The notes: a model not told the origin generated them from the letters alone. A stretch of DNA of 64,000 nt from an uncultured Acidobacteriota bacterium (GCA_963824225.1 CAWGOF010000003.1:3040847-3104846); one strand, 5' to 3'; positions 8,011 to 51,436 are shown, counted from the first letter of the stretch. Numbers and translations are program-made.

Positions 8011-8034
8011 GGCGTTCTCCTCGTCTGTTCGGCG

Positions 8035-8109: not shown

Positions 8110-8134
8110 GGCGTTCTCCTCGTTTCGTTCGGCG

Positions 8135-8209
8135 TTAGCGGATGTAGGTCTTGCGGGGCGGAAGGGAAACGGACTCGGCACCGGCTTTGATCTGGCTCTT
8201 GGTCTTCAT
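8135..8209 (-). CDS. 24-aa peptide, copy 4 (…PPRKTYIR variant)
   Basis: ATG 8207-8209 preceded by GAGGAG; TAA stop. Confidence 0.6.
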   Translation of the reverse strand: MKTKSQIKAGAESVSLPPRKTYIR

Positions 8210-8234
8210 GGCGTTCTCCTCGTTTCGTTCAGCG

Positions 8235-8309
8235 TTAGCGGATGTAGCTCTTGCGGGGCGGAAGGGAAACGGACTCGGCACCGGCTCTGATCTGGCTCTT
8301 GGTCTTCAT
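8235..8309 (-). CDS. 24-aa peptide, copy 5 (MKTKSQIRAGAESVSLPPRKSYIR; K8R variant)
   Basis: ATG 8307-8309 preceded by GAGGAG; TAA stop; one substitution (ccggctctga) changes K to R. Confidence 0.6.
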   Translation of the reverse strand: MKTKSQIRAGAESVSLPPRKSYIR

Positions 8310-8334
8310 GGCATTCTCCTCGTTTCGTTCGGCG

Positions 8335-8409
8335 TTAGCGGATGTAGCTCTTGCGGGGCGGAAGGGAAACGGACTCGGCACCGGCTTTGATCTGGCTCTT
8401 GGTCTTCAT
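8335..8409 (-). CDS. 24-aa peptide, copy 6 (first transcribed; MKTKSQIKAGAESVSLPPRKSYIR)
   Basis: ATG 8407-8409 preceded by AGGAGGcccacg; TAA stop. Confidence 0.6.
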   Translation of the reverse strand: MKTKSQIKAGAESVSLPPRKSYIR

Positions 8410-14521: not shown

Positions 14522-14545
14522 GGCCCGACTCTACCGCACTCGCCG

Positions 14546-32970: not shown

Positions 32971-33819
32971 ATGACCGAGCTGCGCCGTCGGATGATTCAG
33001 GCCATGACCGTTCGGGGATTCTCTCCAAGCACGCACGAGTCCTACTTGGGTGCCGTGCGGCGGTTGGCCAAGCACTACCGTCGTTCGCCGGATGCGTTGA
33101 CGGTGGAGCAGGTGCAGGCCTACCTGGCACACATGGTGACGCAGCAGAAGCTGTCGTGGAGCACGTGCAACATCGCGGCGCAGGCGTTCCGCTTTCTGTA
33201 CCACGTGACATTGGGGCGCGATGTTGCTGCATTCGAGATTCCGTCGGCCAAGCAACCGCAGCGACTGCCCGAGATCCTGAGCCGTGAGGAGGTAGCGCGG
33301 CTGATCGAGGCGCCGCCGAACCCGAAGCACCGGTTGTTGTTGGCGACGGTCTATGCCGGGGGCTTGCGCGTGAGCGAAGCCGTGCGGCTGAAGGTCAGCG
33401 ACGTCGACCGCGGGCGGATGACTTTGCGCATCGAGCAGGGCAAGGGGAAGAAGGACCGCGTGGTCCCGCTGTCTGCGAGACTCGTCGGCCAGATCGAAGC
33501 GTTGTGGCAGACCGAGCCGCCTCGCCATTGGCTGTTTCCCAACCGCAGTGGCAGGCGACCGATCGACATCACGGTTGCACAGAAGGTGTTCACGATGGCC
33601 AAGCTTCGGGCCGGGATCACGAAGCGCGGCGGGATTCACTCGCTGCGCCACGCCTTCGCCACCCACCTGATCGAGGCGGGAGGGGACGTACCCACAATCC
33701 AGCGTCTGCTGGGACATCGTTGTGTGTCGACGACGATGCGCTACTTCCATCTCAGCCAGGGGCGGCTGGCAACCCTGCGGTCGCCACTCGATCTACTCGA
33801 GACGATTCCCCGGACGTAG
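32971..33819 (+). CDS. tyrosine recombinase/integrase-family protein associated with IS91-family element
   Basis: 282 aa; ...LATVYAGGLRVSEAVRLKVSDVD...HSLRHAFATHLIEAGGDVPTIQRLLGHRCVSTTMRYFH conserved R..H-R-Y catalytic box. Confidence 0.7.
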   Translation: MTELRRRMIQAMTVRGFSPSTHESYLGAVRRLAKHYRRSPDALTVEQVQAYLAHMVTQQKLSWSTCNIAAQAFRFLYHVTLGRDVAAFEIPSAKQPQRLPEILSREEVARLIEAPPNPKHRLLLATVYAGGLRVSEAVRLKVSDVDRGRMTLRIEQGKGKKDRVVPLSARLVGQIEALWQTEPPRHWLFPNRSGRRPIDITVAQKVFTMAKLRAGITKRGGIHSLRHAFATHLIEAGGDVPTIQRLLGHRCVSTTMRYFHLSQGRLATLRSPLDLLETIPRT

Positions 33820-33822
33820 CCG

Positions 33823-35013
33823 TTGCCAGGCGAGCCGACCTGCGCGCATCGCAGGCGGCCGCAGCGCCGACTCGAGCTTGCCGACCTCGTCCGTGGCTAC
33901 GGCGATCGTCTACGCTCTATCCGGCGCCTGAGCGGCGAGCAGCTTGCGGCCCTGCGCGCCATCGAGCGCTGTCGTACCCCGGCCCTCGGGGGCAGCCGCG
34001 AAGTCTGCACCAACTGCGGTGCCCAGCGCATCCTGTGGCACTCGTGTCGCAACCGCCACTGCCCGAAGTGCCAGACGACGGCCAAGGAGCGCTGGCTCGA
34101 AGCGCGCCTCGAGGAGTTGTTGCCCGTCGACTACGTGCATGTGGTCTTCACGCTGCCGCACGAGTTGAACGCCTTGGCTCTTGCCTGTCCCCGACTCGTC
34201 TATGGGCTCCTGTTTCAAACCGCCGCAGCGACGCTGCTTGCATTCGCACGCGACGGCCGGCATCTGGGCGCCGAGCCCGGAATCGTCGCCGTCCTGCACA
34301 CCTGGGGCCAGAATCTCTCCCTGCACATCCACCTGCACTGCATCGTCACCGCGGGTGGTCTCGACCCGACGCAACGCCGGTGGATCCGCCGGCCGGGGGG
34401 CTACCTGTTTCCGGTCCACGCCCTGTCCCGCGTGTTTCGCGGCAAGTACCTTGACGCTCTGCGCCACGCGCTCCGCGATTCTCCGGATCTCGCGCGCAGC
34501 GTTTCCATCCAGCAGCTTTGGCAGCACGACTGGGTCGTCTACGCCAAGAAGCCCTTCGGTGGCCCACGCCAAGTCCTGGACTACCTGGCTCGCTACACAC
34601 ACCGCGTCGCGCTGACCAACGATCGATTGCTCGAGTTGCACGAGGGGATCATCGGGGTCCGTTGGCGTGACTACGCACACGGCGGCAAGCGCAAGGTCCT
34701 CCGACTCCACGCCGCAGACCTGCTCGGACGCTTCGTGCTCCACGTTCTCCCGCGCGGCTTCCGACGCGTGCGCCACTACGGGTTGCTCGGCAATCGTCAC
34801 AGGTCCGCCAAGCTCGCCGCGTGTCGGCGCTACTTCGGCATCGCCTCGATCGATCGGTCCACATCGACCGATACTGCATCGTCTCCCTTGCGTCGGCTTG
34901 GCATCGATCCTCGTCGCTGCCCGGCCTGCGGTGCAAGCCAACTCCAACATGAACCCGTCCTACCACAGCCTCCCGTAGCTCGCGCCCGCGCGCCCACTGG
35001 CACCGCATGCTGA
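33823..35013 (+). CDS. IS91-family transposase
   Basis: 396 aa; N-terminal zinc-binding CTNCGAQRILWHSCRNRHCPKCQ, HTW and HxH motifs (AVLHTWGQNLSLHIHLHCIV), C-terminal Y-containing region. Confidence 0.7.
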   Translation: MPGEPTCAHRRRPQRRLELADLVRGYGDRLRSIRRLSGEQLAALRAIERCRTPALGGSREVCTNCGAQRILWHSCRNRHCPKCQTTAKERWLEARLEELLPVDYVHVVFTLPHELNALALACPRLVYGLLFQTAAATLLAFARDGRHLGAEPGIVAVLHTWGQNLSLHIHLHCIVTAGGLDPTQRRWIRRPGGYLFPVHALSRVFRGKYLDALRHALRDSPDLARSVSIQQLWQHDWVVYAKKPFGGPRQVLDYLARYTHRVALTNDRLLELHEGIIGVRWRDYAHGGKRKVLRLHAADLLGRFVLHVLPRGFRRVRHYGLLGNRHRSAKLAACRRYFGIASIDRSTSTDTASSPLRRLGIDPRRCPACGASQLQHEPVLPQPPVARARAPTGTAC

Positions 35014-35318: not shown

Positions 35319-35918
35319 ATGGCGGTCTACCTACGAACTGACGAACAGGTTGAAGCGGCCGCGGCGCTTGAGACGGGTGGCCACGCCGCGGCTCGTGTGG
35401 CACTCGATGTGTATGACTGGCGCTGGGTAGTACTCGCGCTCCACAACGCTCTTCAGGGGTTCATGGTCATAGCCCTTCGTGGGAGCGATGGGTTGGCCCC
35501 GCTCCGAGACAAGATCGCCGCGGCGTGGTTGAAGGCCTACCGATCAAACCAACCTCCCCCCAACGAGGAATTGGACTCCTTCCTCAACCTGTACTCCAAG
35601 ATCAAAGGGCCACGGATGCGGCAGTACATCCACAGCGCCATCTTCCAGGCAAAGGGATCCGAGGACTGGAGCGTGAGGAAGCTGAACGTTCTACGGAATC
35701 AGTTCGTGCACTTCCTGCCTCGTAGCTGGTCGTTAGAGGTCTCCGGCCTGCCCAGGATATGCTTGGACTGCGTCGACGTCATCGAATTCCTCGGCTGGAA
35801 GTGTGGCAACGTTCGGTGGAGTGAGTCATCGGTGGAGCAGCGCGCAGTCGCGGCCGTTCGTGAGCTGCGCGCCGAACTCAGCAAGTTGGCGTCGAAGTAT
35901 GGGGGCACGGCCGCATGA
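35319..35918 (+). CDS. hypothetical protein (lower GC than surroundings)
   Basis: ~200 aa from ATG 35319 (MAVYLRTDEQ...); no recognised domain; GC visibly reduced. Confidence 0.35.
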   Translation: MAVYLRTDEQVEAAAALETGGHAAARVALDVYDWRWVVLALHNALQGFMVIALRGSDGLAPLRDKIAAAWLKAYRSNQPPPNEELDSFLNLYSKIKGPRMRQYIHSAIFQAKGSEDWSVRKLNVLRNQFVHFLPRSWSLEVSGLPRICLDCVDVIEFLGWKCGNVRWSESSVEQRAVAAVRELRAELSKLASKYGGTAA

Positions 35919-36006
35919 CGTCCGGTTGAGCCCGCGGGTTAGCCGTGCGTTAGACAGCCGCCAGTATCACAGCCGCCGACACGCACCGGGACGGAGACCG
36001 AACTCA

Positions 36007-38135
36007 GTGAACCATAGCGAAATCGTCAGCTTTCTCTGGGGCGTCGCGGACCTCATCCGCGACACCTTCAAGCGCGGCAAGTACCAGGACGTCATCCTGC
36101 CGCTCACCGTCCTGCGCCGCCTCGACTGCGTGCTCGCCGGCACCAAGGAGAAGGTGCTCGGCGAAGCAGGCCGAGCTGAGGGGCAAGAAGCTCGAGAACC
36201 TCGACCCGCAGCTGCGCAAGGCCTCCGGCTTCGCCTTCTACAACACCTCCCGCTACGACTTCGAGAAGCTCCTGGCCGACGCGCCGCACCTCGCCGCCAA
36301 CCTGCGCAACTACATCGCCGGGCTTCAGCCCCAACATGCGCGAGGTGCTGGAGAAGTTCGACTTCGACAACACCATCAGCAAGCTCGACGAGGCGGGGCT
36401 TCTCTTCCAGGTGCTCGAGCGCTTCAAGAACGTCGACCTGCACCCCGACAGGATCGACAACCCGACGATGGGCACGATCTTCGAGGAGCTGATCCGGAAG
36501 TTCAACGAAGCGCTGAACGAGAATCCCGGCGAGCACTTCACGCCGCGCGACGTCGTGCACCTGATGGTGGATCTGATGCTCGCCGGCGACGAGACGCGCG
36601 ATCCGCGCCAAGAGGGCGATCGTCGCACGGTCTACGACCCCTGCTGCGGCTCGGGCGGCATGCTGATGATCACCAAGGAGCACATCACGGTCGGCCTGCG
36701 GAAGAACGGCGAGCTGCTCCGGCCCGCGATCAACCCGGACGCCGAGATCCATCTGTTCGGCCAGGAGGTGAACCCCGAGACCTGGGCGGTCTCGAAGTCC
36801 GACCTGTTCATGAAGGACCCGACCGGCCGCGACGCCGACAACATCGCCTTCGGCAGCACGCTCTCCAACGACCGCCACGCCGGCCAGACCTTCGACTACC
36901 TGATCGCCAATCCGCCCTACGGCAAGGACTGGAAGCGCGACGAGGACGCCGTGCGCGCCGAGCACGAGCGCGGCGCCGCGGGCCGGTTCGGCCCGGGCCT
37001 GCCGCGGATCAGCGACGGCCAGCTCCTGTTCCTGCTGCACATGCTGGCCCACGCGAAGGACCCCGAAGGAAGGCGGCTCGCGCATCGCCATCATCATGAA
37101 CGGCTCGCCGCTCTTCACCGGCGACGCCGGCAGCGGCGAGAGCGAGATCCGCCGCTTCATCCTGGAGAACGACCTGCTCGAGGCGCTGATCGCGCTCCCC
37201 GAGCAGCTCTTCTACAACACCGGCATCGCGACCTACGTGTGGGTGGTGACGAACCGCAAGGCGCCGGCGCGCAAGGGCAAGGTGCAGCTCATCGACGCCA
37301 CCTCGTTCTGGGTGCCGATGCGCAAGAGCCTCGGCGACAAGCGCCGCGAGATCCCGCTCGAGCGCGCGCAGGACATCCTGAAGATCCTCGTCCGACTTCC
37401 AGGACGGCGAGACGCGGAAGGTGGCGAAGGACGGCAAGGAAGAGGACGTCGTCGTCAGCCGCATCTTCCCGACCACCCACTTCGGCTTCCGCAAGATCAC
37501 CGTCGAGCGCCCGCTCCGGCTCAACTTCCAGGCGAGCGCCGGAGCGCATCGCCCGCCTCGAGGAGGAGAAGGGCTTCCAGGCGCTGGCGCAGTCGAAGAA
37601 GAAGGGCGCCGCGGGCGCGAAGGAGCAGGCCGAAGGGCGCGCGCTGCAGGAGGCGATCCGCAAACTCGTGCGGGCGCTCCCCGGCACGCTCTTCAAGGAC
37701 CGCGACGAGTTCGAGCGCTTGCTCGACGCCGCCGCGAAGAAGGCCGGCATCAAGCTCCCGGCCGCCGGTCACGCAAGGCCATCCTCTCCGCGCTCTCCGA
37801 GCGCGACGAGACGGCCGCGATCTGCCGCGACAAGGACGGCGATCCCGAGCCCGACCCCGAGCTGCGCGACACCGAGAGCGTGCCGCTCGCCGAGAGCGTC
37901 GAGGCGTTCTTCGAGCGCGAGGTCAGGCCCCACGTCCCGGACGCCTGGATCGACACGTCCAGGCGCGACCCGAAGGACGGCCAGGTCGGCTTCGTCGGCT
38001 ACGAGATCAACTTCAACCGCTACTTCTACCGCTACACCCCGCCGCGCCCGCTCGAGGAGATCGAGGGCGAGATTCGGCGGCATCGAGCAGGACATCCTGC
38101 GGATGCTGGCCGAGGTGACGGGAGGGTCTGTCTGA
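36007..38135 (+). pseudogene. hsdM: Type I restriction-modification system methyltransferase subunit (HsdM), disrupted by at least 7 frameshifts
   Basis: GTG start; HsdM N-terminus NHSEIVSFLWGVADLIRDTFKRGKYQDVILPLTVLRRLD, catalytic NPPYG ([13 protein letters not shown]), HsdM C-terminal region; coding sense hops between frames near 36165, 36325, 37060, 37395, 37540, 37765, 38075. Confidence 0.7.
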
Positions 38136-38203
38136 GGTCTGAGTGGCAGGTGCCGGCACTTGGTCGGATCTGCCGACGTTCTCTGCCGAAAGGTTGGAAT
38201 CAA

Positions 38204-38233
38204 ATGTCGGCACTTGCGATTATGTGCCGACAT
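38204..38233. promoter_or_regulatory. operator-like inverted repeat ATGTCGGCAC-N10-GTGCCGACAT upstream of abiEi (plus related direct repeats at 38151-38180)
   Basis: perfect 10-bp arms, 16 bp upstream of abiEi ATG; AbiEi antitoxins are known autorepressors binding inverted repeats. Confidence 0.45.
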
Positions 38234-38249
38234 CGACTACCATTCCGCC

Positions 38250-38858
38250 ATGGACAAGCCGCGCCTGACCAGGGCACGTCTGAACGCCGCGGGGGTGGGA
38301 GCCTTCTTCCGGCCGCGTGACGTGCTGCCGCTCGGGGTGTCGTTCCGCCAGCTCCAGCGCCTCGTCGCCGAAGGCACGGTCGAGAAGCTCGGGGGCGGTG
38401 TGTATCGGCTCTCCGAAGTCGAGCCGAACGAGCTCGAGACCATAGCGATGGTGGCCTCGGCCGCACCCAACGCGATCGTCTGCCTGCTCACCGCGCTGCG
38501 CGTCCACGGGATTGGAACCCAGGCACCGCACCAGGTGTGGCTGGCGATCGACCGCAAGGCACGCATCCCGAGACGGCTCCCGGCCAAGGTCCGCATCGTC
38601 CGCTTCTCCGGCCAGATGCTGACCTACGGCGTCGTCACGCAGTCCATGCAGGGGGTCAGGGTCCGCCTCACCAATCCTGCCCGCACCGTCGTCGACTGCT
38701 TCCGCTACCGGAACAAGATCGGCCTCGACGTCGGCATGGAGGCGCTGCGCGACGCGGTGCGCTCGCGCAAGGCGATGGTCGGTGAGATCGACCGCGCGGC
38801 CGAGGTGTGTCGCATCCGCACGGTCATCGGACCCTACCTGGAGGCGCTGTCGGCATGA
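38250..38858 (+). CDS. abiEi: AbiEi-family antitoxin/transcriptional regulator
   Basis: ~200 aa; N-terminal winged-helix region (…[46 protein letters not shown]...) typical of AbiEi; stop overlaps abiEii ATG (ATGA). Confidence 0.55.
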
Positions 38859-39799
38859 GCGGGCGGGAGGTCGAAGGCCGGGCGGAATCAATCCGGCAAC
38901 GCCTACGGAACGAGCTTCGCGCCCGCGGCGAGGACGTGACGCTCGGGCTGCCGCGCTACGCGGTCGAGCGGTTCCTGTACCGGCTCGGCCGGTCGCGTCA
39001 CCGTGAGCGCTTCGTGCTGAAGGGAGCGACGCTCTTCGCGATCTGGGGTACGGCCTACCGGCCGACACGCGATGTCGACTTCACGGGCTACGGCAGCCCG
39101 GACGCGCAGGACGTGATCACTGCCTTCCGCGAGATCTGCAACACCCCGGACGACGTCGATCAGCTCGTGTTCGACACGGACTCGATCACGGCGGAGCCGA
39201 TCCGGGACGGCTCGGAGTACGACGGCCTTCGCATCCGGATCCGGGCGCGGCTGGGAGCATCCGACATCCCGATTCAAGCGGACGTCGGATTCGGCAATGC
39301 GATCGTTCCCGGCCCGGAAGAGCAGGAGTATCGAACGATTCTGGGCGATCCGCCGCCGCGAATCCTGGCCTACCCGCCCGAGTCCGTCGTGGCCGAGAAG
39401 CTGCACGCGATGGTGATGCTGGGCGAGCGGAACAGCCGCTACAAGGACTTCTACGACCTCTACGCGATGGCAGGCGCCTTCCATTTTGAGCGGCCCACGC
39501 TCGTGCAGGCGGTGAGGGCAACTTTCGAGCGCAGGAGCACACCGGTGGAGGCAGCGCTCCCCGCGGCGCTCGCGGCTCCCTTCTACGCCAAAGAAGCCCG
39601 TGCGGCGCAGTGGCGCGCGTACGTGGACCGCAACCACCTCACCGAAGCTCCCGCCGACTTCGGTCGCGTAGGCGATCGGCTCACCGCCTTCCTGCAACCC
39701 GTCTGGGCCGACGTCGCCTCCGGCACCGCGACGGCCGGCGACTGGCAAGGCGGGGGACCGTGGTCGCGGGGATCCTCGAGCGGGAGTCCGCCGCCATGA
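38855..39799 (+). CDS. abiEii: AbiEii-family nucleotidyltransferase toxin (DUF1814)
   Basis: 314 aa; ...RFVLKGATLFAIWGTAYRPTRDVDFTGYG... nucleotidyltransferase-fold G-S/D-xD region; pairing with AbiEi. Confidence 0.6.
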   Translation: MSGREVEGRAESIRQRLRNELRARGEDVTLGLPRYAVERFLYRLGRSRHRERFVLKGATLFAIWGTAYRPTRDVDFTGYGSPDAQDVITAFREICNTPDDVDQLVFDTDSITAEPIRDGSEYDGLRIRIRARLGASDIPIQADVGFGNAIVPGPEEQEYRTILGDPPPRILAYPPESVVAEKLHAMVMLGERNSRYKDFYDLYAMAGAFHFERPTLVQAVRATFERRSTPVEAALPAALAAPFYAKEARAAQWRAYVDRNHLTEAPADFGRVGDRLTAFLQPVWADVASGTATAGDWQGGGPWSRGSSSGSPPP

Positions 39800-41651
39800 C
39801 CATCCATCCCCGCCCACCCCGCGAGATCGACGGCAAGGGCCGCACCGTCCGCGAGCTGCTCGCCGGCCGAAAGTACTCGATCGACTACTACCAGCGCGAG
39901 TACAAGTGGCAGCAGAAGCAGGTCGCCGAGCTGATCGACGACCTCGCGGCCAAGTTCCTGGAGAGCCATGAGGACGGCAACGAGCGCAGCGCCGTCGCCG
40001 ACTACGGCCACTACTTCCTCGGCTCGATCATCATCAGCGACAAGGACGGCCAGAAGTTCATCATCGACGGCCAGCAGCGCCTCACCACGCTGACGCTGCT
40101 CCTGATCTTTCTCCACCACAAGCTCGGGGACGCCGAGCAGAAGGGGCAGATCGCCGATCTCATCTTCTCGCAGAAGTTCGGCAAGCGCTCGTTCAACCTC
40201 GACATCCCCGAGCGCACCGCCTGCATGGAGGCGCTCTACAAGGGCGAGGAGTTCGCCGACGCCGACGCGCCCGAGTCCATCGCCAACATCCTGGCCCGCT
40301 ACGCGGACCTCGAGGACCTGTTCCCCGAAGAGCTCGCCGGCGCCGGCGCTGCCGTACTTCGTGGACTGGCTGGTCGAGAACGTGCACCTGGTCGAGATCA
40401 CCGCCTACTCCGACGGCGACGCCTACACGATCTTCGAGACGATGAACGACCGCGGGCTCTCGCTCACCCCCGCGGACATGCTCAAGGGCTACCTGCTCGG
40501 CGAACATCACCGACGCCGACAAGCGCACCCGCGCGAGCCGCATCTGGAAGGAGCGGGTGCAGGCGCTGGCCGAGCTCGGCAAGGACGAGGACGCCGACGG
40601 CATCAAGTCGTGGCTGCGCAGCCAGTACGCCGAGAGCATCCGCGAGCGCAAGCGCGGCGCAGCGCCGCAGGACTTCGACCTGATCGGCACCGAGTTCCAC
40701 CGCTGGGTGCGCGACCACGACGGACCGCCTCGGTCTCACGGCCAGCGCCGAGTTCGCTCGCTTCATCGAGCGCGACTTCGCGTTCTACGGCCGCTGGTAC
40801 GAGCGCCTGCGGCGCGCGGCCGAGGCGCTCGCGCCCGGGCTCGAGTGCGTCCACTTCAACGCCCAGCACAACTTCACGCTCCAGTACCCGGTGCTGCTTG
40901 GCGCCGCTCCGCGTGGAGGACGACGAGGCCGGCGTGCTGCGCAAGCTCCGCGTCGTGGCCGCTTACCTCGACATCCTGATCCACCGCCGCATCTGGAACT
41001 GGCGCGCGATCGACTACTCGACGATGCAGTACGCGATGTTCCTCGTGATGCGCGACATCCGCGGCAAGGGCGTCGCCTGAGCTGGCCGCGCTGCTGCGCG
41101 AGCGCCTCGACGCCGAGACCGAGACCTTCGCGAGCAACGACCGCTTCCGGCTGCACGGCATGAACGGCCGCCAGATCCACCGGCTGCTGGCGCGCATGAC
41201 GGACTACGTGGAGACGCGCTCCGGCATGGCCTCGCGCTACCCCGAGTATGCCCAGCGCGGCCGGAAGGGCTACGAGATCGAGCACATCTGGGCCGACCAC
41301 CCCGAGCGGCACACCGACGAGTTCGCGCACCCGAGCGAGTTCCAGGAGTACCGGAACCGCATCGGCGGCCTGCTGCTCCTGCCGAAGAGCTTCAACGCCA
41401 GCTACGGCGATCTGCCCTACGCCGAGAAGCGCGAGCACTACGTCGGCCAGAACCTGCTCGCGCGGAGCCTCCACGAGCGCGCGTACGACCACAACCCGGG
41501 CTTCCGGCGCTTCATCGAGGAGAGCGGCCTGCCGTTCCGCGCGCACGCCGAGTTCAGGAAGGCCGATCTCGACGCGCGGCAGGTGCTCTACCAGCGACTG
41601 GCCGAGCGGATCTGGAGCCCGGAGCGGCTGGGACAGGAGGCGGCGTCGTGA
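39796..41651 (+). pseudogene. GmrSD-like (DUF262 + DUF1524) modification-dependent type IV restriction endonuclease, multiply frameshifted
   Basis: N-terminal DUF262 with FIIDGQQRLTTL motif; C-terminal DUF1524 HNH-like region GYEIEHIWADHPERH...; sense switches frames near 40345, 40500, 40725, 41085. Confidence 0.55.
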
Positions 41652-43015
41652 GCGGGGCGACGTACAGCGAGCGTGCGGGAGCGCTGCGGCGGTACAAGCC
41701 ATACCCGGCCTACAAGGACTCCGGCGTCGAGTGGCTGGGGGAGATTCCGGCGCATTGGGATCTGCGCCGGCTCAAGACCAGCGCTGCTGTTCAGCTCAGC
41801 AACGTCGACAAGAAGTCGGTTGAAGGCCAGGAAGCAGTGCGGCTCTGCAACTACACCGACGTCTACTACCACGAGCGCATCTCAGCAAACCTGGACTTCA
41901 TGGCAGCCACGGCGACATCGGACCAAGTGCGCCGCTTTGCACTACGCAAGGGCGATGTGCTCATCACCAAGGACTCGGAGTCTTGGACCGACATCGCGGT
42001 GCCCACGGTCGTAGCGGAAGATCTGCCCGGAGTGTTGTGCGGCTATCACCTCGCCCACATCAGACCCACTCACGTTTGCCACGGACCCTTTCTCGCGCGG
42101 GCCTTCAGCGCGATTGGCCCTCGGGATCAGTTTCAAGTCGCGGCCAACGGCATCACTCGTTTCGGGCTTGGCGGCGATGCGATTGCAACCGGGCTGTTCG
42201 CAATGCCCCCCGAGCCCGAGCAACGCGCCATCGCCGCCTTCCTCGACCGGGAGACGGCGCGGATCGATGCGCTGGTGGCGAAGAAGGAGCGGCTGATCGA
42301 GTTGCTCCAGGAGCAGCGCACCGCCCTCATCACCCGCGCCGTCACCAAGGGCCTCGACGCGAATGCCCCGATCTCAGGCACGGGCTCTACCGTCTTTCCT
42401 CCGGTCCCGTCGGGGTGGGAGTTGCGGAAGCTGCGGCGTCTCCTCACGCGGGTGAAACGACCCGTCAAAGTTGACCCTGACTCTGAGTACCGGGAGATCG
42501 GCATCCGCTCGTGGGGCAAAGGCATCTTTCACAAGGAACCCGTGCGCGGGGTTCTGCTCGAGGACAAGAGTGTGTTCGGTATCGAGCCGGGCGACTTCGT
42601 GCTCAACATCGTCTTCGCATGGGAAGGCGCAGTCGCCGTTGCTGCCGAACCGGAGCGTGGAATGGTCGGCTCGCACCGTTTTCCCACGTTTCGCACCTCC
42701 GAGGAAGTTGATCTGGACTACCTCTTGATGGTTTTTCAGACCAAGCATGGCCGTGCGTTGATGGAGGTGAACTCGCCAGGTGCTGCGGGTCGCAACAAGA
42801 CGATCAGGGTAGACCAGTTTCTCGATGAGCTGGTGCCGCTGCCTCCGGTCGCGGAACAGAAGGAGATTGTCCGACGGTTTAGGAGCGATGAAGTGCGGCT
42901 CGGCGGACTCGTCGGGCGGCTTTGCGAGGCCATCGACCGCCTCAAGGAGCTGCGCACTGCCCTCATTTCCGCCGCGGTGACGGGCAAGATCGACGTGCGG
43001 GAGGTCGAGGCATGA
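41648..43015 (+). CDS. hsdS: Type I R-M specificity subunit (HsdS), two target-recognition domains
   Basis: 455 aa; GTG start overlapping upstream stop; two TRD halves separated by conserved coiled-coil repeats (…LQEQRTALITRAVTKGLD… and …LKELRTALISAAVTGKIDVRE). Confidence 0.75.
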   Translation: MSGATYSERAGALRRYKPYPAYKDSGVEWLGEIPAHWDLRRLKTSAAVQLSNVDKKSVEGQEAVRLCNYTDVYYHERISANLDFMAATATSDQVRRFALRKGDVLITKDSESWTDIAVPTVVAEDLPGVLCGYHLAHIRPTHVCHGPFLARAFSAIGPRDQFQVAANGITRFGLGGDAIATGLFAMPPEPEQRAIAAFLDRETARIDALVAKKERLIELLQEQRTALITRAVTKGLDANAPISGTGSTVFPPVPSGWELRKLRRLLTRVKRPVKVDPDSEYREIGIRSWGKGIFHKEPVRGVLLEDKSVFGIEPGDFVLNIVFAWEGAVAVAAEPERGMVGSHRFPTFRTSEEVDLDYLLMVFQTKHGRALMEVNSPGAAGRNKTIRVDQFLDELVPLPPVAEQKEIVRRFRSDEVRLGGLVGRLCEAIDRLKELRTALISAAVTGKIDVREVEA

Positions 43016-44700
43016 GGGTCACCAAGGCGCGCATCCGGAACTTCCGTGGCCTGAAGGACGTCGGGTTGGAACTCGGTTCGACCACGGTGCTGATCGGCGA
43101 GAACAACTCCGGCAAGACGTCGGTGCTGGACGCCCTCCGGCTCTGCCTCAGGGAGTTGGGACCCCGGCGCCGGGTGGTCTTCGACAGCTTCGACTTCCAT
43201 CTGAAGGACGGAGCGGCGGAGCCGCAGTCGGCAGACCCTATCGAGATCGAGATCAGGTTCTCGGAGACTTCCAAGGGAGAATGGAACGACGCGCTGGTTG
43301 GTCGCCTGAATCGCCAGAAGATCCTGCAGGTCGACGGCGACGATCTGAACCACGTCATGCTCCGCGTCACCTGCACCTACGACCCGACGAACCGAGACTT
43401 TGCTCAGGACTGGGCCTTCCTGAACCTCGAGGGGAAGCCGTTGACCGCAGTGTCCGAAACGGCACTGGGAACCCTGCAACGCGAGGTCGCCTTCTACTAC
43501 CTGAGCGCGCTCCGCGATGCCGCGTGGCACTTCGATGCCAAGGGGCCCTTCTGGAGGCCGTTCCTCAAAGACAGCCAGCTCACGGAGGCCAGGAAGGCTG
43601 AGGTCGTGGAGAAGCTCCGGGAGATCAATGAGCTGGTCGTCGCCTCCCACACCAGCTTCGAGCACGCCATAGAACGGCTCGGCCGAGTGCGGGACGTGGT
43701 GCCGATGGCGGGCGGAGACATGGTGTCCATCGAGGCCGTACCGGGGCGGATGTTCGACATGCTGGCCAAGGCGCAGGTGCACTTGGGCGCGTCGACCGGA
43801 GCGAGAATCCCGATCGGGAGACACGGCGAGGGAACCCAGAGCCTTTCCGTCCTGATGCTCTTCTCCGCGTTTCTGAGTACGAAGCCGGAGGGCAGCCCCG
43901 TGGTGGCGCTCGAGGAGCCGGAAGCGCACTTGCATCCATCGGCGGTCCGGGCCCTCTGGGACATCCTCCGCTTGATCGACGGCCAGAAGTTGATCTCGAC
44001 CCACAGCGGCGATCTACTCTCTGAGGTGGATGTTCTCAATGTGCGTCGTCTCGCCATGGCGGAGGACGGCATTCGAGCCTATCGCGTCCCCTCCACGCTC
44101 CTGTCTGCGGAGGAGACGCGAAAGTTCAACTACCACATCCGCAGATCACGGGGCGAGCTCCTCTTCGCTCGCTGCTGGCTCCTAGTCGAGGGGGAGACCG
44201 AAGCCTGGGTTTATCCTGCGGCCGCTCGTGCTCTTGGGATGAAGCTCCACCGTGATGGCGTGCGGATCGTTGAGTACAGCCAGTCCGACGTAGGACTCCT
44301 GGCCAAGGTCGCGAACTCGCTGGGTCTCCTGTGGTTCTGTGTCATCGACGATGACTCGGGTAGAAGCGAGTACGAACGGAACGTGCAGGACAACCTCGCG
44401 GGGGCATCTGAGAGCGACCGACTCCGCTTTCCGTACAGGAACATAGAAACGCACCTGCTCGAGAGTGGCTACGACGCGATCTATGACCCGTACATGCCGG
44501 AGCAGAAGCGCGCCCTACTGACGAAGCACCCGGGCGATGACGGCTACTGGGCCGACTTCGCAGACCAGCTACCGAAACGACGCAAGACCCGAGCAGCGGC
44601 CGATGTAGCCGCTGCGATGGAGGCGAAGGGCAAGGAGGGGGTGACGGACGAGCTCCGCGGCATCCTCGAGAAGGTCGTGGCTCTGGCGCGAGGTGAGTGA
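43012..44700 (+). CDS. gajA: OLD-family ATPase/Toprim endonuclease, GajA-like
   Basis: 562 aa from ATG overlapping hsdS stop; Walker A GENNSGKTS, ABC-type ATPase region, C-terminal Toprim LLVEGETEAWVYP; partner UvrD-like helicase immediately downstream = Gabija-type architecture. Confidence 0.65.
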   Translation: MRVTKARIRNFRGLKDVGLELGSTTVLIGENNSGKTSVLDALRLCLRELGPRRRVVFDSFDFHLKDGAAEPQSADPIEIEIRFSETSKGEWNDALVGRLNRQKILQVDGDDLNHVMLRVTCTYDPTNRDFAQDWAFLNLEGKPLTAVSETALGTLQREVAFYYLSALRDAAWHFDAKGPFWRPFLKDSQLTEARKAEVVEKLREINELVVASHTSFEHAIERLGRVRDVVPMAGGDMVSIEAVPGRMFDMLAKAQVHLGASTGARIPIGRHGEGTQSLSVLMLFSAFLSTKPEGSPVVALEEPEAHLHPSAVRALWDILRLIDGQKLISTHSGDLLSEVDVLNVRRLAMAEDGIRAYRVPSTLLSAEETRKFNYHIRRSRGELLFARCWLLVEGETEAWVYPAAARALGMKLHRDGVRIVEYSQSDVGLLAKVANSLGLLWFCVIDDDSGRSEYERNVQDNLAGASESDRLRFPYRNIETHLLESGYDAIYDPYMPEQKRALLTKHPGDDGYWADFADQLPKRRKTRAAADVAAAMEAKGKEGVTDELRGILEKVVALARGE

Positions 44701-46584
44701 TGACTTTGAACCTGGACTCATTGAACGAGAACCAGCGCAAGGCCGTCGAATGGCAGGATGGTCCCCTGCTCGTCCTCGCTGGTCCGGGGTCTGGAAAGAC
44801 TCTGGTCTTGACTCTGCGCGTGGCGCGTCTACTGGAGGAGCACGAGGACGCCGCGGTGCTCGCCCTCGCTTTCACGAGCAAGGCGGCCGCGGAGATGCGC
44901 GAGCGAGTCGATCGCCTTCTGGGGCAACACGGCGACCGTGCGCAGCTCTGCACCTTCCATGCGTTCGCTACCGACGTGCTGCGGCAGCATGGTAGCCATG
45001 TGGGGATTCAGCCCGACTTCTCTGCTGATCCAGGAGGAGGATCGGGTGGCCTTGGTGCAAGAGATCGTCGAGGATCTGACGGAGAATGGCCACGTCTTCC
45101 CGACCGATCACCGGAACACCCTCGCGCTCGTGGATCGCCTGTTCGCCTCCTCCTACGACGGTGCTCGAGAGGCTTCTTCCCTCGTGCACACTCCTGCGTG
45201 GGTACCGGACTTGTTTGCGACTTACTGCCAGCGGCTTGTCGCCGCGAACCGGTTGGATTTCGGTGCCCTGCTCCACTTCGCCCGCAAGCTCCTGTCAGAG
45301 CAAGGCGGTGTGACTCGCGTGTTGCGGGCGGGCTGGAGCTACGTGTGCGTCGACGAGTTCCAGGACACGAACAAGGCGCAGTACGACCTGCTGAGACTGC
45401 TCGTGCCACCAAGTGCACCGAATCTCTTCGTGGTCGCGGACGATGATCAGATCATCTACCAGTGGAACGGCGCGAGCCCCGAGCGTTTGCAAGCCCTGCA
45501 GCAGGATCACGGGATGGAAGTCGTTCAGCTCCCGGAGAACTTCCGGTGTCCGAAGGAGATCATCGATCTGGCGAACCGACTCATCGCTCACAACCGACTC
45601 CGGGCCGCGGACAAGAAGCCGCTGACCACCAGTCGGCGTGCCGCGTCGAGCGATGACCTCGTCCGGGTGCGTGCGTACTGCACACCCGAGGAGGAAGCGG
45701 CGGGCATCGCCGCCGACATTCGCGATCGCGGGCTGGCGCCTGTAGACGTGGCCGTTCTCGCCCGGACGACGAAGCTGCTCAATGGAGCGGCCGAGGCGCT
45801 AGGAGCCGCAGGTCTCGACGCTCATGTTACCCAGCGCAAGGCGGAGTTCGAGACTCCTTTGGTGCGCGTGGTCTTCCACGCGCTTCGGCTCGCGAATTCC
45901 CGGCACGACCGCGATGTGCTGCGACGTCTGTGCGTCGCTTGGGGCGCCCTCACGGACCACGATCTGGAACTCGGAGACGTGATCGCCGGGGCCACACTTG
46001 CCGGGGGGGACTTCCTGCGCGCGTGGGCTGATGCCGCGGCGGCTGGTGCGGAGGGAAGTCATGCGGATCTACTCGGCCGCCTTCGGTCATCGCTGGTGGA
46101 TCGCCTCGACTTCCCGGGCGTTGTCGATTGGTTTCTGTCCGATGGCGCGACGACGCCGGCGGACGTCGACGACCCGGCGCTGGCGACCGAGCTCGAGACC
46201 TGGCAAGAGCTGCACGGCGAGCTGGTGCGAGAGCACGGCGAGGATGCACTGACCTTGAACGTCTACCTGCAGCACATGGACCTGGCACCGAAGGGTCCCC
46301 GGCCGGGCCCGAACGCCGTCCGTTGCATGACGATGCATGGAGCGAAGGGGCTCGAGTTCCGGCACGTGTACCTGATCGGAATGGCGCAGGAGGTCTTCCC
46401 CTCCTTTCAGGCGCTTCGCAAAGGGGCGAACAGCCGGGAAGTCGAAGAAGAGCGCAGGAACTGCTTCGTCGCGATCACACGGGTTCAGGAAACGCTGACG
46501 TTGACATATGCGCGTCAGTACTACGGCTACCGCAAGAATCGCTCGCAGTTCCTCGAGGAGCTGGGGCTCTCGGAGGGCTCGTGA
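44700..46584 (+). pseudogene. gajB: UvrD/PcrA-like superfamily-1 helicase, GajB-like, with one frameshift near 45025
   Basis: LVLAGPGSGKT Walker A, VCVDEFQDTN (Walker B/DEAD-like), ...; frame A ends ...GIQPDFS, frame B continues LLIQEEDRVALVQEIVE; start overlaps gajA stop (TGATG). Confidence 0.55.
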
Positions 46585-46637
46585 TTCTTCATCCGGGTTA
46601 CCGCTCCAGATGCCCTTTCTCGACCGAGACACCGCCA

Positions 46638-46741
46638 TTGTCGCCAAGGCCTGCGAGGCCATCGAGCGCCTCAAGGAACTCCGCACCGCCCTCATCTCCG
46701 CCGCGGTGACGGGCAAGATCGACGTGCGGGAGGAGGTCGCA
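46638..46741 (+). repeat. duplicated 3' end of hsdS (~90% identical to 42918-43015) forming direct repeats around the gajAB insertion
   Basis: encodes ...AKACEAIERLKELRTALISAAVTGKIDVREEVA* versus hsdS end ...CEAIDRLKELRTALISAAVTGKIDVREVEA*; stop overlaps hsdR ATG exactly as at the hsdS-gajA junction. Confidence 0.8.
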
Positions 46742-49700
46742 TGAGCCCCGAGATCTCCGAGCGCTCCTTCGAGGAGGCGATCGAGTGCGCGCTGCTCCAG
46801 CACGGCCCCGACGCCTGCGCCGAGCGACGCGACGGCTGTCCGCGAGACGCCGCCGCCGTACGGCGACACGCCGCCGGGCGGCTATCGCAAGCGCAAGCCC
46901 GAGGACTACGACCGCACGCTCTGCCTGCTGCCGCGCGACGTGGTGGACTTCGTCCTCGCCACGCAGCCCAAGGAGTGGAAGAAGCTCGAGCAGCACCACG
47001 GCGCGGCGGTCCAGCGAGCAGTTCCTGAAGCGCCTCGCCGCCGAGATCGAGCGGCGCGGCGCGCTCGACGTGCTGCGCAACGGCATCAAGGACTCCGGCT
47101 GCAAGTTCCGGCTCGCCTACTTCCGCCCCGCGAGCGGGCTCAACGAGGAGACGCGGCGGCTGCACGCGGCGAACCTCTTCGCCGTGGTGCGCCAGCTCCG
47201 CTACAGCACGAAGAACGAGAAGAGCCTCGACCTGGTGCTGTTCCTGAACGGCATCCCGATCTTCACCGCCGAGCTCAAGAACCCGCTCAACGGCCAGGAC
47301 GTCGAGGACGCGATCCGCCAGTACAAGACCGACCGCGACCCGCGCGAGCCGCTGCTCGCCTACGGCCGCTGCCTCGCGCACTTCGCGGTGGACCCGGACC
47401 TGGTCTACGTCACCACGCAGCTCGCCGGGCCGAGGACGCGCTTCCTGCCCTTCAACCAGGGCAAGTTCGGCGGCGCCGGCAACCCGCCCGTGCCGCCCAC
47501 GCGCAAGCGGCTACGCGACCGCCTACCTCTGGGAGGAGACCTGGGCGCGCGACAGCGTGCTCGACCTCGTGCGCCAGTTCATCCACGAGGTCGAGGAGGA
47601 GGACGACAAGGGGCGCAAGACCGGCAAGCGCTTCCTGATCTTCCCGCGCTACCAGCAGCTCGACTGCGTGCGCAGGCTCGTGACCGACGCGCGCGCGAGC
47701 GGGCGCGGGGCAGCGCTACCTGATCCAGCACTCGGCCGGCAGCGGCAAGAGCTTCACCATCGCCTGGCTCGCCCACCAGCTCTCGACGCTCCACGACGCG
47801 AGCGACCGGCGCGTCTTCGACTCGATCGTCGTCATCACCGACCGGCGCGTGCTCGACCGCCAGCTCCAGACGACGATGCGCCAGTTCGAGCAGACGCTCG
47901 GCGTGGTGGAGAACATCGACACCACCTCGCGCCAGCTCAAGGAGGCGCTCGAGTCGGGCAAGACGATCATCGTCACCACGCTGCAGAAGTTCCCGGTGAT
48001 CGCGAAGGAGATCGGCGAGCTGCCGGGCAAGCGCTTCGCCGTGATCGTGGACGAGGCGCACTCGTCGCAGTCGGGCGAGAGCACGAAGAGCCTCGAAGGC
48101 GGTGCTCGCGTCGGGGTCGCTCGAGGAGGCCGAAGCCGAGGAGAGACGGAGGCAGGACGCCGGAGGAGGAGCTCGAGAGCTACGCTCCTGGCCGAGATGG
48201 AGAAGCGCGGGCACGCTCCCGAACCTCTCGACGTTCGCCTTCACCGCCACGCCGAAGCCGAAGACGCTGGAGCTGTTCGGCACGAAGCGCGCCGACGGGA
48301 AGTTCGCGCCCTTCCACCTCTACAGCATGCGCCAGGCGATCGAGGAGGGGTTCATCCTCGACGTGCTGGCGAACTACACGACCTACAAGGCCTACTGGCG
48401 GCTGCTCAAGAAGGTCGAGGACGACCCGCGCTACGACAAGAAGAAGGCCGAGTACCTGCTCAAGTCGTTCGTCGAGCTGCACCCGCACGCGATCGGCGAG
48501 AAGGTGCGGATCATGCGTCGAGCACTTCGCCGCGCAGGTGCAGGGCGAGATCGGCGGCAAGGCCAAGGCGATGATCGTCACGCGCTCGCGCCTGCACGCG
48601 GTGCGCTACAAGCTGGCGGTGGACGAGTACCTCGCCGAGCGCGGCTATCCGTTCAAGGCGCTGGTGGCGTTCTCCGGCACGGTCCAGGACGGCGGGCAGT
48701 CCTACACCGAGTCCGAGCATGAACGGCTTCCCGGAGGCGCAGACCGCCAAGACCTTCGAGCGGCCCGAGTACCGGTTCCTGATCGTCGCCAACAAGTTCC
48801 AGACCGGCTTCGACCAGCCGCTGCTGCACACGATGTACGTGGACAAGAAGCTCGGCGGCGTGAACGCGGTGCAGACGCTCTCGCGGCTCAACCGCACGCT
48901 ACCCCGGAGAAGAAGGGCACGATGGTGCTCGACTTCGCCAACGAGGCCGACGAGATCAAGGCCGCCTTCGAGCCCTACTACGAGACGACGCTGCTCTCCG
49001 AGGCGACCGACCCGAACCTGCTCTACGAGATCCAGACCCGCCTCGCCGCCTTCCCGGTCTACACCGAGGCCGACGTGGACGCCTTCGCCAAGGTCTACTT
49101 CGACCCCAAGGCGACGCAGGACCGGCTCTACGCCGTGCTCGCGCCCGTGGTCGAGCGCTTCCAGGCAGCTCTCGCGCCGAGGAGCAGCACGACTTCCGCG
49201 GCCAGCTCACCGACTACGTGCGGCTCTACGCCTTCCTCGCCCAGGTGCTGACCTTCGCCGACGCCGACCTCGAGAAGCTCTACGTCTTCGCGCGGCACCT
49301 GCGGCGGCTGCTGCCCGCCGACCGCGCCGAGCTGCCGCGCGAGGTGCAGCAGAACATCGACATGGAGTCGTACCGGATCCAGCAGACCGGCAGCGGCAAG
49401 ATCGCGCTGGAGCGCAGGCCCGGCGTGCTCGAACCCGTGAGCACCAAGCAGCGGCCACGGCGTCGACGCCGGAGGAGCTGGAGACGCTCTCGCGCATCAT
49501 CGCCGAGCTGAACGAGCGCTTCGGACTCAACCTCGGCCCCGAGCACCGCGTGACGCTCGGCCAGATGATGGAGAAGCTCGACGACGACGCGGCGCTCGAC
49601 GCGGCGGCGCGGGTCAACACGCGCGAGAACGTGCGGCTCACCTTCGACCAGAAGGTCGAGCACGTGATCCAGGAGATCGTCGACTCGAACTTCGAGCTCT

Positions 49701-50336
49701 ACAAGCGCATCACCGACGACCGCGCCTTCGGCGAGGCGATCAAGAACTTCCTGTTCGACCAGTACCTGCGCGCTCACCGCAACGCCGAGGAGCTGATCAA
49801 GCGCGGCGAGTCGAAGACGCTGGAGTTCAAGTCCACCCTGCGCTGGAGCCTCAAGGAGGACCGGCAGGACGACAAGGGCGTGACGCACGCCGTCCTGAAG
49901 ACGATCGCCGCGTTCCTGAACACCGAGGGCGGCGATCTCCTGATCGGCGTGGCGGACGACGGCGCGATCGTCGGCATCGAGCACGACCAGCTCGAGAACG
50001 ACGACAAGTTCATGCGCCACCTCGCCCAGGTCGTGCGCAACGGTCTCGGCGACCGTGCCGGTACCTGCATCGATCCGAAGACCCAGATCGTGCAGGGCAA
50101 GACGGTCTGCGTCGTGAGCTGCCAGCGGAGCCCTGAGCCGGTGTTCCTGAAGTGGAAGGGGATGGAAGACGCGCCGGACGGCGACTTCTTCGTCAGGAGC
50201 GGCCCCGGGACCGTGAAGCTCCCTCCCGAGAGCGCGCGTCGAGTACATTCGAACGCGGTTCGCCGGGTTCCTAGTCGAAGAGAAACCAGACGCACCATCA
50301 AGGGGAGCGACAACGGGTCCCGGCGCGGACACCGCA
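46741..50336 (+). pseudogene. hsdR: Type I restriction enzyme R subunit (HsdR), multiply frameshifted, with in-frame C-terminal AlbA_2/Schlafen-like (divergent AAA_4) domain
   Basis: HsdR N-terminal nuclease region, SF2 helicase motifs (QHSAGSGKSFT, DEAHSSQ, ...), C-terminal ...[20 protein letters not shown]...; at least 8 frame switches between 46990 and 49460; 49790-50235 encodes [13 protein letters not shown]...[18 protein letters not shown] AlbA_2-like domain. Confidence 0.65.
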
Positions 50337-51436
50337 TGAGCTACTTCATGGATTTGTTTTCGCCCGAAACATATGAGGCGTTTGCCAAGTCAGACAGGAC
50401 CATTTCGGGGTTTCGCCCCCGGCAGCGAAACATCGCCCAACGCATCAGGCCGGGGGACAAACTCGTCTGCTATATGACTCGGCTGTCGCGCTGGATCGGC
50501 ATTCTCGAGGTGGAGAATGGGCCTTTCAACGACGCGACGCCGATCTTCTATCCGGAGGCAGATCCTTTTACGGTCCGGTTTCGCGTTAGAGCGAAGGTCT
50601 GGCTGCCGTTGGAGAAGACGGTGCCAATCCACGCCTCAACGGTCTGGGGCAGTCTGTCCTTCACTAGCAAGCTTCCCCACTCCTCTACTGCTTGGACTGG
50701 AAAGGTCCGAGGCAGCCTGGTGGCTCTATCGGACGCCGACGGCGAATTCCTAGAGTCGCTGCTGGCCCGGCAAGCTACGGCTGGTCAGGAATACGCCCTG
50801 GATTCAGATGAGCAGAAGAAGCTCCGGGCAACGAAGATCAGGCGTCTCGAGAAGGACGTCACGGTTACCGTTCCAGAAGACGCCGAGCCCGCCGCACCGC
50901 CTGTAGTCGTCGGTGAAGTGCGAGAGTCCATTCGCATCCAGGCGCTTCTCGCCGAAGTCGGTAGCCGAATGGGGCTACAGATTTGGATTCCTCGATCTGA
51001 CCGCGCCGCCGTGGAAACTGAATGGCGGAGAGACCACCCGCCAATCCTCGACCGCCTACCCCTCAACTACGATGACACGACCCTCAGGACTATCGAGCAG
51101 ATCGATGTGCTGTGGCTAAAAGGCCGCTCCATCAAGCGGGCCTTCGAGGTTGAGCATACGACGTCCGTGTACTCGGGAATTTTGCGGATGGCCGACCTGC
51201 TTGCGCTCCAGCCAAACATGGATATCCGGCTCCATATCGTCGCGCCGCCCGCTAGGCGCGAGAAAGTCTTCCAGGAGATCCTGCGGCCAGTCTTCTCTCT
51301 CCTAGATCGGGGCCCTCTCTCCGAAAGCTGCACCTTCGTGTCCTATGAGAGCGTTCGTGAGCTCGCCGATCAGCAGCATTTGGAACACCTATCGGATACA
51401 GTCCTCGATGAATACGAGGAGCAAGCCGGGGATTAG
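50337..51436 (+). CDS. PUA-like (EVE/ASCH-type) domain fused to putative PD-(D/E)xK-like nuclease domain; candidate modification-dependent restriction enzyme
   Basis: no stop separates it from hsdR frame, but GC drops to ~58% from 50337 and codon usage changes; N-terminal [18 protein letters not shown]...[25 protein letters not shown]-like pattern; C-terminal ...[19 protein letters not shown]... nuclease-like motif. Confidence 0.4.

Follow-up and report, generated by a model that had tools for sequence, protein, structure and literature searches.

A Type I restriction–modification operon with two cargo slots in an uncultured Acidobacteriota bacterium, and the probable origin of its frameshifts

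The stretch of DNA analysed here (henceforth the window) comprises 64,000 nucleotides from a 3.55-Mb contig of an uncultured Acidobacteriota bacterium (GCA_963824225.1 CAWGOF010000003.1:3040847-3104846), and between positions 36007 and 51436 it carries a Type I restriction–modification (R-M) locus with further defence genes nested among its hsd genes. At the G+C content of the window, about 68%, an open frame is by itself a poor guide to a gene; the three forward frames of the 35–52 kb region were scanned against Pfam with stops masked. On the plus strand we found, in this order, hsdM, abiEi, abiEii, gmrSD, hsdS, gajA, gajB, hsdR and an open reading frame (ORF) for an EVE/PUA-type nuclease, the order proposed earlier from the bare sequence without database searches (the sequence-only reading). 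The corresponding Pfam families (HsdM_N/N6_Mtase, AbiEi, AbiEii, GmrSD_N/GmrSD_C, GajA, UvrD, the HsdR domains and SLFN_AlbA_2) follow one another accordingly, and all the PADLOC models expected, i.e. MTase_I, AbiEi, AbiEii, GmrSD-like, Specificity_I, GajA, GajB and REase_I, were matched, so that the domain assignments of that reading (OLD/Toprim, UvrD, DUF262/DUF1524, AbiE) hold. Overall, we consider it likely that the locus is an operon built on a widely transferred Type I backbone with two cargo slots, that gajA and gajB are a recent addition to it, and that the many small insertions and deletions (indels) in four of its genes are most probably consensus errors.

The operon is led by hsdM, as the sequence-only reading had it, but the start given there, 35319, is the ATG of a separate ORF of 199 codons; hsdM itself begins at a GTG at 36007 and extends to 38135. 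In the sequence as given, its HsdM_N and N6_Mtase domains are scattered over three frames. The repaired protein of 705 residues matches PADLOC MTase_I with 899 bits over positions 5–660 of 661, and its N6-adenine methyltransferase domain includes the NPPY motif (IANPPYG in the translation). The specificity gene hsdS (41648–43015) is intact and encodes two target-recognition halves, the PADLOC Specificity_I match (4.3e-91; 2.9e-89 for the part spanning positions 2–441 of 448) agreeing with this, with central and C-terminal conserved repeats at 42296–42345 and 42932–42981; the Pfam Methylase_S match is weak. The HSDR_N, SWI2_SNF2/ResIII, T1R_D3-like and SLFN_AlbA_2 domains of hsdR (46741–50339, repaired ORF of 1193 codons) lie in different frames, and the repaired protein matches PADLOC REase_I (6e-38). 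The last of these domains (AlbA_2/Schlafen, approximately 49808–50221) had been taken for a separate cassette; in all intact homologues (1176–1324 residues) it is the C-terminal domain of HsdR. Intact reading frames for all three subunits are not present in the given sequence, hsdM carrying nine and hsdR about 16 indel events (see below), and Type I methylation and ATP-dependent restriction are predicted activities of this locus.

Between hsdM and hsdS lie three cargo genes. The first two form a bicistronic AbiE pair of the type IV toxin–antitoxin kind: abiEi (38250–38858; PADLOC AbiEi 6.6e-64, Pfam AbiEi_4 and AbiEi_1) encodes an antitoxin and transcriptional regulator with a winged-helix region and a C-terminal domain, and abiEii (38855–39799; Pfam AbiEii 4.7e-45, PADLOC AbiEii 4.9e-101) a nucleotidyltransferase toxin of the DUF1814 type. 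Both genes are intact, and an AbiEii toxicity countered by AbiEi, leading to abortive infection, is predicted. The third, gmrSD (39796–41651), combines an N-terminal DUF262 with a C-terminal DUF1524 in one protein (GmrSD_N 4.4e-21, GmrSD_C 1.7e-08), as expected for a type IV restriction enzyme. Its two domains are found in three frames owing to five single-base insertions; the repaired ORF has 616 codons, the length of nearly all close relatives. GmrSD has 7878 database relatives at E<=1e-50, and among PADLOC models it matches HEC-06, Orf5, SspE and mREase_IV, the HEC-06 models being the best. Modified-base-dependent cleavage is its predicted activity.

Between hsdS and hsdR is a Gabija pair. 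The product of gajA (43012–44700, intact) shows DUF2813, AAA_15 and an OLD-like_TOPRIM in Pfam, i.e. an ABC ATPase with an OLD-type TOPRIM nuclease, and matches PADLOC GajA at full length (2.2e-198, 658 bits, 569-position profile). Directly downstream, gajB (44700–46584) encodes a helicase with UvrD-helicase and UvrD_C domains that, once a frameshift is repaired, matches PADLOC GajB with 744 bits over 635 positions (3.6e-224). The last gene of the operon (50336–51436, intact) had been read as a PUA-nuclease, and PDB profile and fold searches agree: an EVE (PUA-like) domain is fused to a predicted PD-(D/E)XK nuclease, with EVE/PUA-domain modification-dependent endonucleases such as VcaM4I (PDB 6yex) as the closest known kind. 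We predict that this fusion is a modification-dependent endonuclease. Its C-terminal nuclease module (residues ~166–364) also occurs in proteins of 420–477 residues, where the N-terminal regions are different and longer, so the sensor domain of this family appears to be exchangeable.

The genes are tightly packed. Five start/stop overlaps claimed before can be read directly from the sequence: ATGA at abiEi/abiEii (38855–38858), abiEii/gmrSD (39796–39799) and hsdS/gajA (43012–43015), GTGA at gmrSD/hsdS (41648–41651), and TGATG at gajA/gajB (44698–44702, an overlap of one nucleotide). A sixth, which the earlier claim did not mention, joins hsdR to the last ORF (ATGA, 50336–50339). The generalization that every cassette junction is of this kind goes too far, as hsdM and abiEi are separated by 114 nucleotides and gajB and hsdR by 156. 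An intact relative (L081, see below) has the same overlaps, which are thus conserved operon features and not chance. With cargo in both intervals of the hsd genes (hsdM–hsdS and hsdS–hsdR) and all ten genes on the plus strand, the locus has the arrangement of an embedded defence system, and the overlaps suggest that 36007–51436 is co-transcribed as a single co-directional operon of ten genes.

With the stitched HsdM we retrieved 80 related loci (L001–L080), 49 of which hold both hsdM and hsdR. HsdM is 84–93% identical in amino acid sequence across them, and the hsdM/hsdR backbone as a whole shows 84–93% protein and 82–90% DNA identity between hosts as distant as Planctomycetota, Gemmatimonadota, Acidobacteriota, Proteobacteria, Cyanobacteria, Chloroflexota and others. 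Such identity across phyla indicates a recent and very broad horizontal spread. The cargo between these genes varies, as the sequence-only reading had predicted for a comparison of related strains. Downstream of hsdM, abiEi was found in 60 of the 80 loci, abiEii in 53 and gmrSD in 10 (five of them full-length). Among the 49 complete loci, 34 read hsdM-abiEi-abiEii-hsdS-hsdR, four add gmrSD to this layout, four have abiEi only and six are plain hsdM-hsdS-hsdR; abiEi is present in 43. The gmrSD gene lies at the same position in L002, L024, L031, L032 and L041 (88–92% identity), and L002 has the gene order of the window minus gajAB. The interval between hsdM and hsdS sometimes holds a different DUF262 protein, while some 21 loci have nothing between hsdS and hsdR and the others a Fic/DOC gene, an IrrE-like M78 peptidase gene or gajAB. 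The closest relatives of GajB also come from gajAB pairs located between hsdS and hsdR, and one of these loci, L081, reads hsdM-abiEi-abiEii-hsdS-gajA-gajB-hsdR(AlbA_2), with all genes intact and overlapping. The EVE-nuclease gene and the 199-codon ORF at 35319–35918 have no counterpart in any of the 80 loci.

These comparisons point to the composite as a transferable family layout, inherited or transferred as a unit, and not a local construction. The operon would offer two slots, the first (hsdM–hsdS) filled here by the AbiE pair and GmrSD, the second (hsdS–hsdR) by gajA and gajB, with the EVE-nuclease gene overlapping the end of hsdR. What remains of the earlier proposal is that the modules are nested, co-oriented and translationally coupled within a Type I operon; that they are foreign modules spliced into the hsd locus of this genome does not follow, given that abiE belongs to the standard layout of the family and that gmrSD and gajAB occupy the same positions in the distant L002 and L081.

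Only gajAB carries an insertion footprint, and it looks like a recent addition. The pair is bracketed by a 94-nucleotide direct repeat, 90% identical between its copies. Copy 1 (42923–43016) forms the 3' end of the full-length hsdS and takes in its ATGA overlap with gajA. Copy 2 (46652–46745) ends a leftover hsdS C-terminal fragment of 44 codons (46613–46744; translation PFLDRDTAIVAKACEAIERLKELRTALISAAVTGKIDVREEVA, ending at a stop) and takes in the ATGA at which hsdR begins. Four other loci (L082–L085) have this kind of remnant behind gajB, and there its protein is 100% identical to the upstream copy. In slot 2 of L056 (7100–10300), an M78 (IrrE/ImmA-like) peptidase gene is followed by an hsdS C-terminal remnant and then by a Fic gene, a second cassette type with a duplication footprint like that of gajAB. 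No extra copy of the hsdS end was found beside the common Fic cargo, L056 being the only one with it among the 26 loci with slot-2 cargo, which suggests that the remnant marks recently added second cassettes and not all cargo.

A simple model would account for this footprint. On entry, the gajAB pair would have brought along a copy of the conserved hsdS 3' end, regenerating an intact hsdS and its ATGA junction, while the displaced 3' end of the resident hsdS was left as a remnant before hsdR. A cassette that recombines at the hsdS 3' region rebuilds both the gene and the junction, which would explain the seamless appearance of the splice. From footprints in three configurations we infer that the cassette travels with its hsdS 3' copy and recombines there. 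A more general proposal, that the hsdS C-terminal region and its ATGA junction serve as a docking site for integrase-free exchange of cassettes in Type I operons of this family, is offered tentatively, as a conjecture somewhat less probable than its negation. If true, this Type I family would be a cross-phylum, integron-like platform that collects defence modules. In the portion of the literature on embedded defence genes available to us, we did not find a duplication of the hsdS end described as a cassette footprint.

The AbiE pair may be under a control of its own. The spacer between hsdM and abiEi contains, within 38146–38233, two inverted-repeat elements of 27 nucleotides each (38151–38177 and 38205–38231), located 17–99 nucleotides upstream of abiEi, one of them with a perfect palindrome, ATGTCGGCAC-N10-GTGCCGACAT (10-N10-10), at 38204–38233. 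The exact palindrome pattern recurs at the same place in L032, L050, L067, L073 and L075. Inverted repeats upstream of AbiE, and autoregulation by AbiEi, have been described (PMC7319586), and the repeats at 38146–38233 are a putative AbiEi operator, which would fit an AbiEi-controlled internal promoter.

Among the alternative explanations, the one with the best standing is that AbiE is mainly an addiction module stabilising a mobile operon, its nesting being a case of selfish hitch-hiking and not of joint immunity. AbiE is a toxin–antitoxin system (PMC3985639) and comes with its own conserved candidate operator. No other cargo accompanies the backbone so constantly, and the 84–93% identity of that backbone across phyla points to frequent transfer. 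On the other hand, it was abortive infection of phage by which AbiE was originally defined (PMC3985639), Type I-embedded genes that have been tested, TgvAB and PrrC, do defend (PMC11411939, PMC12707154), and the roles in addiction and defence are not exclusive. We regard a mainly addictive role as rather unlikely.

The genes of the locus had been implied to be intact, which four of them are not in the given sequence: hsdM, gmrSD, gajB and hsdR are split over several frames by about 31 indels of one or two bases, nearly all of them insertions. They were placed with a frame-tracking script and by DNA alignment to intact homologues (13 for hsdM, five for gmrSD). In hsdM there are nine insertion events (36162, 36320, 36600, 36621-2, 37061, 37391, 37538, 37768-9 and 38076) and in gmrSD five single-base insertions (40342, 40499, 40721, 40900 and 41075). 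The approximately 16 events of hsdR (46820, 47011, 47507, 47701, 48095, 48144, 48181, 48215, 48513, 48715, ~48900-2, 49177-8, 49452, 49465 and 50239) are insertions of one or two nucleotides, except for a possible one-nucleotide deletion near 48900. In gajB a CT dinucleotide is lost after 45023 within a TCTCT run, at a site where all GajB homologues read PDFSLLIQEED, and the UvrD-helicase domain is split across two frames. Repair of the indels yields an HsdM of 705 residues, a GmrSD of 616, a GajB of 628 and an HsdR of 1193, all of a length usual for their families and none with internal stops. The other genes (abiEi, abiEii, hsdS, gajA and the EVE-nuclease gene) are free of indels and alternate with the affected ones. 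The indels are confined to segments conserved across phyla. Of the 31 events, 30 fall in hsdM, gmrSD and hsdR and one in the remaining genes, which together are just as long (P = 1.5e-8 if events were spread evenly).

Homopolymer error was considered as a cause and set aside, as hsdM and hsdR have no G/C runs of five or more and the affected sites are short contexts; nor was a shared motif, such as a methylation motif, seen at the insertion sites when their contexts were inspected. Apparent frame changes elsewhere in the window (13400, 10716 and 24658) turned out to be ordinary boundaries between genes (HlyD / C39-ABC / ABC and VWA / AsmA).

We think it highly probable that the indels are assembly consensus errors, and that the locus is probably intact in the organism. 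Many other organisms carry this backbone too, and their reads or graph edges may have been merged in during assembly. A majority-vote consensus of many diverged copies would be close to the majority sequence of the family, have few private alleles and show a high G+C content at third codon positions (GC3). All three features are seen in hsdM, gmrSD and hsdR. Each of them ranks first in its family for closeness to the leave-one-out majority sequence; hsdM differs from it by 5.7% (closest other homologue 8.2%, median of the others 13.5%) and hsdR by 4.2% (8.2% and 13.8%, respectively). Each has very few private alleles, and their GC3 of 0.97 compares with a maximum of 0.96 among homologues and with 0.79–0.95 in host genes. 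By contrast, the control, hsdS, ranks 18 of 46 for closeness to the majority and is an ordinary member of its family.

Independent data came from a k-mer assembly of run ERR11630401. Its contigs share with the locus analysed here the exact protein sequences of AbiEii, GajA and the EVE-nuclease, as well as the chromosomal genes that follow downstream (sigma factor, VIT/VWA), and hence derive from the same organism; a gene of 202 codons is called at the position matching abiEi. There, gajB is intact (628 codons) and the hsdR frame is unbroken into its stop, so that both events that could be tested, the gajB deletion and the insertion at 50239, are absent. Other continuous ORFs in this assembly might be taken as proof that 11 events are absent, but they prove nothing, because wrong frames stay open in GC-rich DNA (for 587–651 codons in the window). 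In the genes of related loci, frameshifts were commoner in long-read metagenome bins (4/19) than in other assemblies (3/97, p = 0.013), an excess that suggests that widely shared genes are systematically prone to consensus errors. Single hsdM or hsdR frameshifts were seen in the long-read bins L059, L023, L039 and L065.

Several observations weigh against a purely artefactual origin or against the operon as we read it. Only two of the approximately 31 events are directly contradicted by the independent assembly. Other long-read bins have one frameshift per gene, not nine to 16, which makes this locus extreme. Exact look-up of ten repaired fragments gave no match, although the positive control was not matched either. 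When either of two neighbouring bases at an insertion was deleted, as a test for merged alleles, both resulting sequences were present among homologues in 6 of 7 cases for hsdM against 0.46 expected, and in 4 of 15 for hsdR against 0.34 in controls. The family-central sequence and high GC3 could also be natural, e.g. the outcome of a short branch in a GC-rich donor lineage. Finally, promoter and terminator scans of 34.9–52.3 kb gave counts at the level of shuffled sequence. Searches for identical copies were negative: identical intact versions of GmrSD, the HsdM fragment and GajB were not found, the best representatives being 94%, 93% and 91% identical, respectively, nor was near-identical plasmid DNA, matches being limited to pieces of hsdM, hsdR and gmrSD at 70–83% identity on plasmids of Roseomonas, Rhodococcus and Variovorax.

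Could the frameshifts be real, with the Type I system, GmrSD and GajB in decay and AbiE, HsdS, GajA and the EVE-nuclease alone functional? Besides the small number of events contradicted by other data, the gene call of the source genome itself (P0244, 528 residues) carries the gajB truncation, and the loss of a dinucleotide by slippage within TCTCT is a natural type of mutation. However, some 30 indels without a single in-frame stop, together with an in-frame GC3 of 0.96–1.00 in the indel-bearing genes and a ratio of non-synonymous to synonymous substitution rates (dN/dS) of about 0.10, are unlike neutral decay; for the repaired hsdM, dN/dS against homologues is 0.09–0.12, equal to that of intact pairs and indicative of normal purifying selection. 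Bacterial pseudogene decay is deletion-biased, whereas the events here are insertions almost throughout. Together with the interleaving of intact and broken genes and the absence of both testable events from the second assembly of the same organism, this makes real decay quite improbable, and we retain consensus errors as the explanation of the frameshifts.

Least credible of all is that separate foreign cassettes were spliced one by one into the hsd operon of this genome within a mobile region marked by the IS91 element. In its favour, the 94-nucleotide duplication around gajAB is an insertion footprint, cargo differs among related loci, and genes for a recombinase and an IS91 transposase are located 1 kb upstream. 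Against it, abiE and gmrSD are without flanking repeats, the related loci place these genes identically in many phyla (with the complete M-abiE-S-gajAB-R arrangement in L081), and the neighbourhoods of those loci are different and lack IS91.

The nesting of defence genes in Type I systems is already known, and this locus is a rich further example. According to the portion of Payne et al. available to us (bioRxiv 10.1101/2024.01.29.577857), defence genes are embedded in Type I R-M, BREX, DISARM and Hma systems ('guilt-by-embedding'), embedded genes are co-oriented in 96.7% of cases, and GmrSD-like proteins are frequent guests of RM Type I. The window resembles the cases given there in having extra defence genes on the same strand between the genes of a modification system, and its GmrSD is best matched by the HEC-06 models; it differs from them in that a single Type I operon accommodates AbiE, GmrSD and Gabija together, and an EVE-nuclease gene overlaps the end of that operon. 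The combination of these four was not found described in the part of the embedded-defence literature accessible to us. Like TgvAB (PMC11411939), the window nests a DUF262/DUF1524 type IV function in a Type I R-M cluster, a pairing that the TgvAB authors see as covering both unmodified and modified phage DNA. Unlike that two-protein system, the GmrSD of the window, known from its sequence, is a single fused protein of 616 residues encoded between abiEii and hsdS. The EcoprrI Type IC locus, the classic case, likewise has an accessory defence gene in its hsd operon, prrC, whose product acts as a back-up when restriction is inhibited (PMC12707154). This product, an anticodon nuclease, is kept in physical association with the R-M enzyme (PMC12707154), whereas AbiE and Gabija are known here from their genes. 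As for Gabija, the pair has full-length PADLOC matches to GajA and GajB, adjacent and in the order A then B with a 1-nucleotide overlap, as in known systems; unlike standalone Gabija it lies inside a Type I operon, and its gajB is frameshifted in the given sequence.

How the parts might work together can be proposed from the known activities of their families. HsdM2S would methylate the host DNA and HsdR2M2S would cut unmodified invading DNA, while GmrSD and the EVE-nuclease would attack DNA that escapes by means of modified bases. Gabija would cut DNA upon a change in or depletion of the nucleotide pool, or in response to anti-restriction proteins, and AbiE would serve as an abortive-infection or addiction back-up and stabiliser of the locus, probably under its own autoregulated operator. 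If intact in the organism, the operon would thus be a compact, layered immunity under one transcriptional unit, in which restriction acts on unmodified DNA and two readers on modified DNA, joined by a nucleotide-sensing nuclease–helicase and an abortive-infection pair. In nature the backbone moreover comes with a range of cargo (none, AbiE, GmrSD, Fic, M78 peptidase, Gabija), and with these variants it can be tested why defences nest and how cassettes change places. At this locus, the genes in widest circulation are also those full of indels and pulled toward the family consensus, which could mislead surveys of pseudogenes or of 'inactivated' R-M systems that draw on long-contig metagenome bins.

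Upstream of the operon, outside it, the plus strand carries a tyrosine recombinase gene (32971–33819; Pfam Phage_integrase 7.8e-38, Phage_int_SAM_4 3.3e-20) and an IS91-family transposase gene (33823–35013; Y2_Tnp 8.5e-53, Zn_Tnp_IS91 9.8e-31), the latter encoding a Y2 HUH-type enzyme with an N-terminal zinc-binding domain. The IS91-type transposase reported earlier is real, but it does not belong to the system as such, for the surroundings of the related loci are different. The 199-codon ORF that separates the IS91 element from hsdM (35319–35918, plus strand) has a GC3 of about 0.75 and no match in Pfam, PADLOC or NCBIfam; it may be a gene.

Farther away, on the minus strand, there is a tandem array of 4.7 copies of a 100-nucleotide unit (7938–8409, 97% identical), each copy encoding a peptide of 24 residues, MKTKSQIKAGAESVSLPPRK(S/T)YIR. 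The array is directly downstream of a HlyD-like gene, a C39-peptidase ABC transporter and a second ABC transporter (8563–14530), and from its sequence the ensemble is laid out like an export locus for a multi-copy secreted peptide (of the bacteriocin type or that of ribosomally synthesized and post-translationally modified peptides). Inside the C39-peptidase ABC transporter gene (10710–14000, minus strand), there are two tandem duplications of the same 13-nucleotide unit, GGGGTCAGGTCTC, at 11526–11550 and 12567–12591, some 1 kb from each other.

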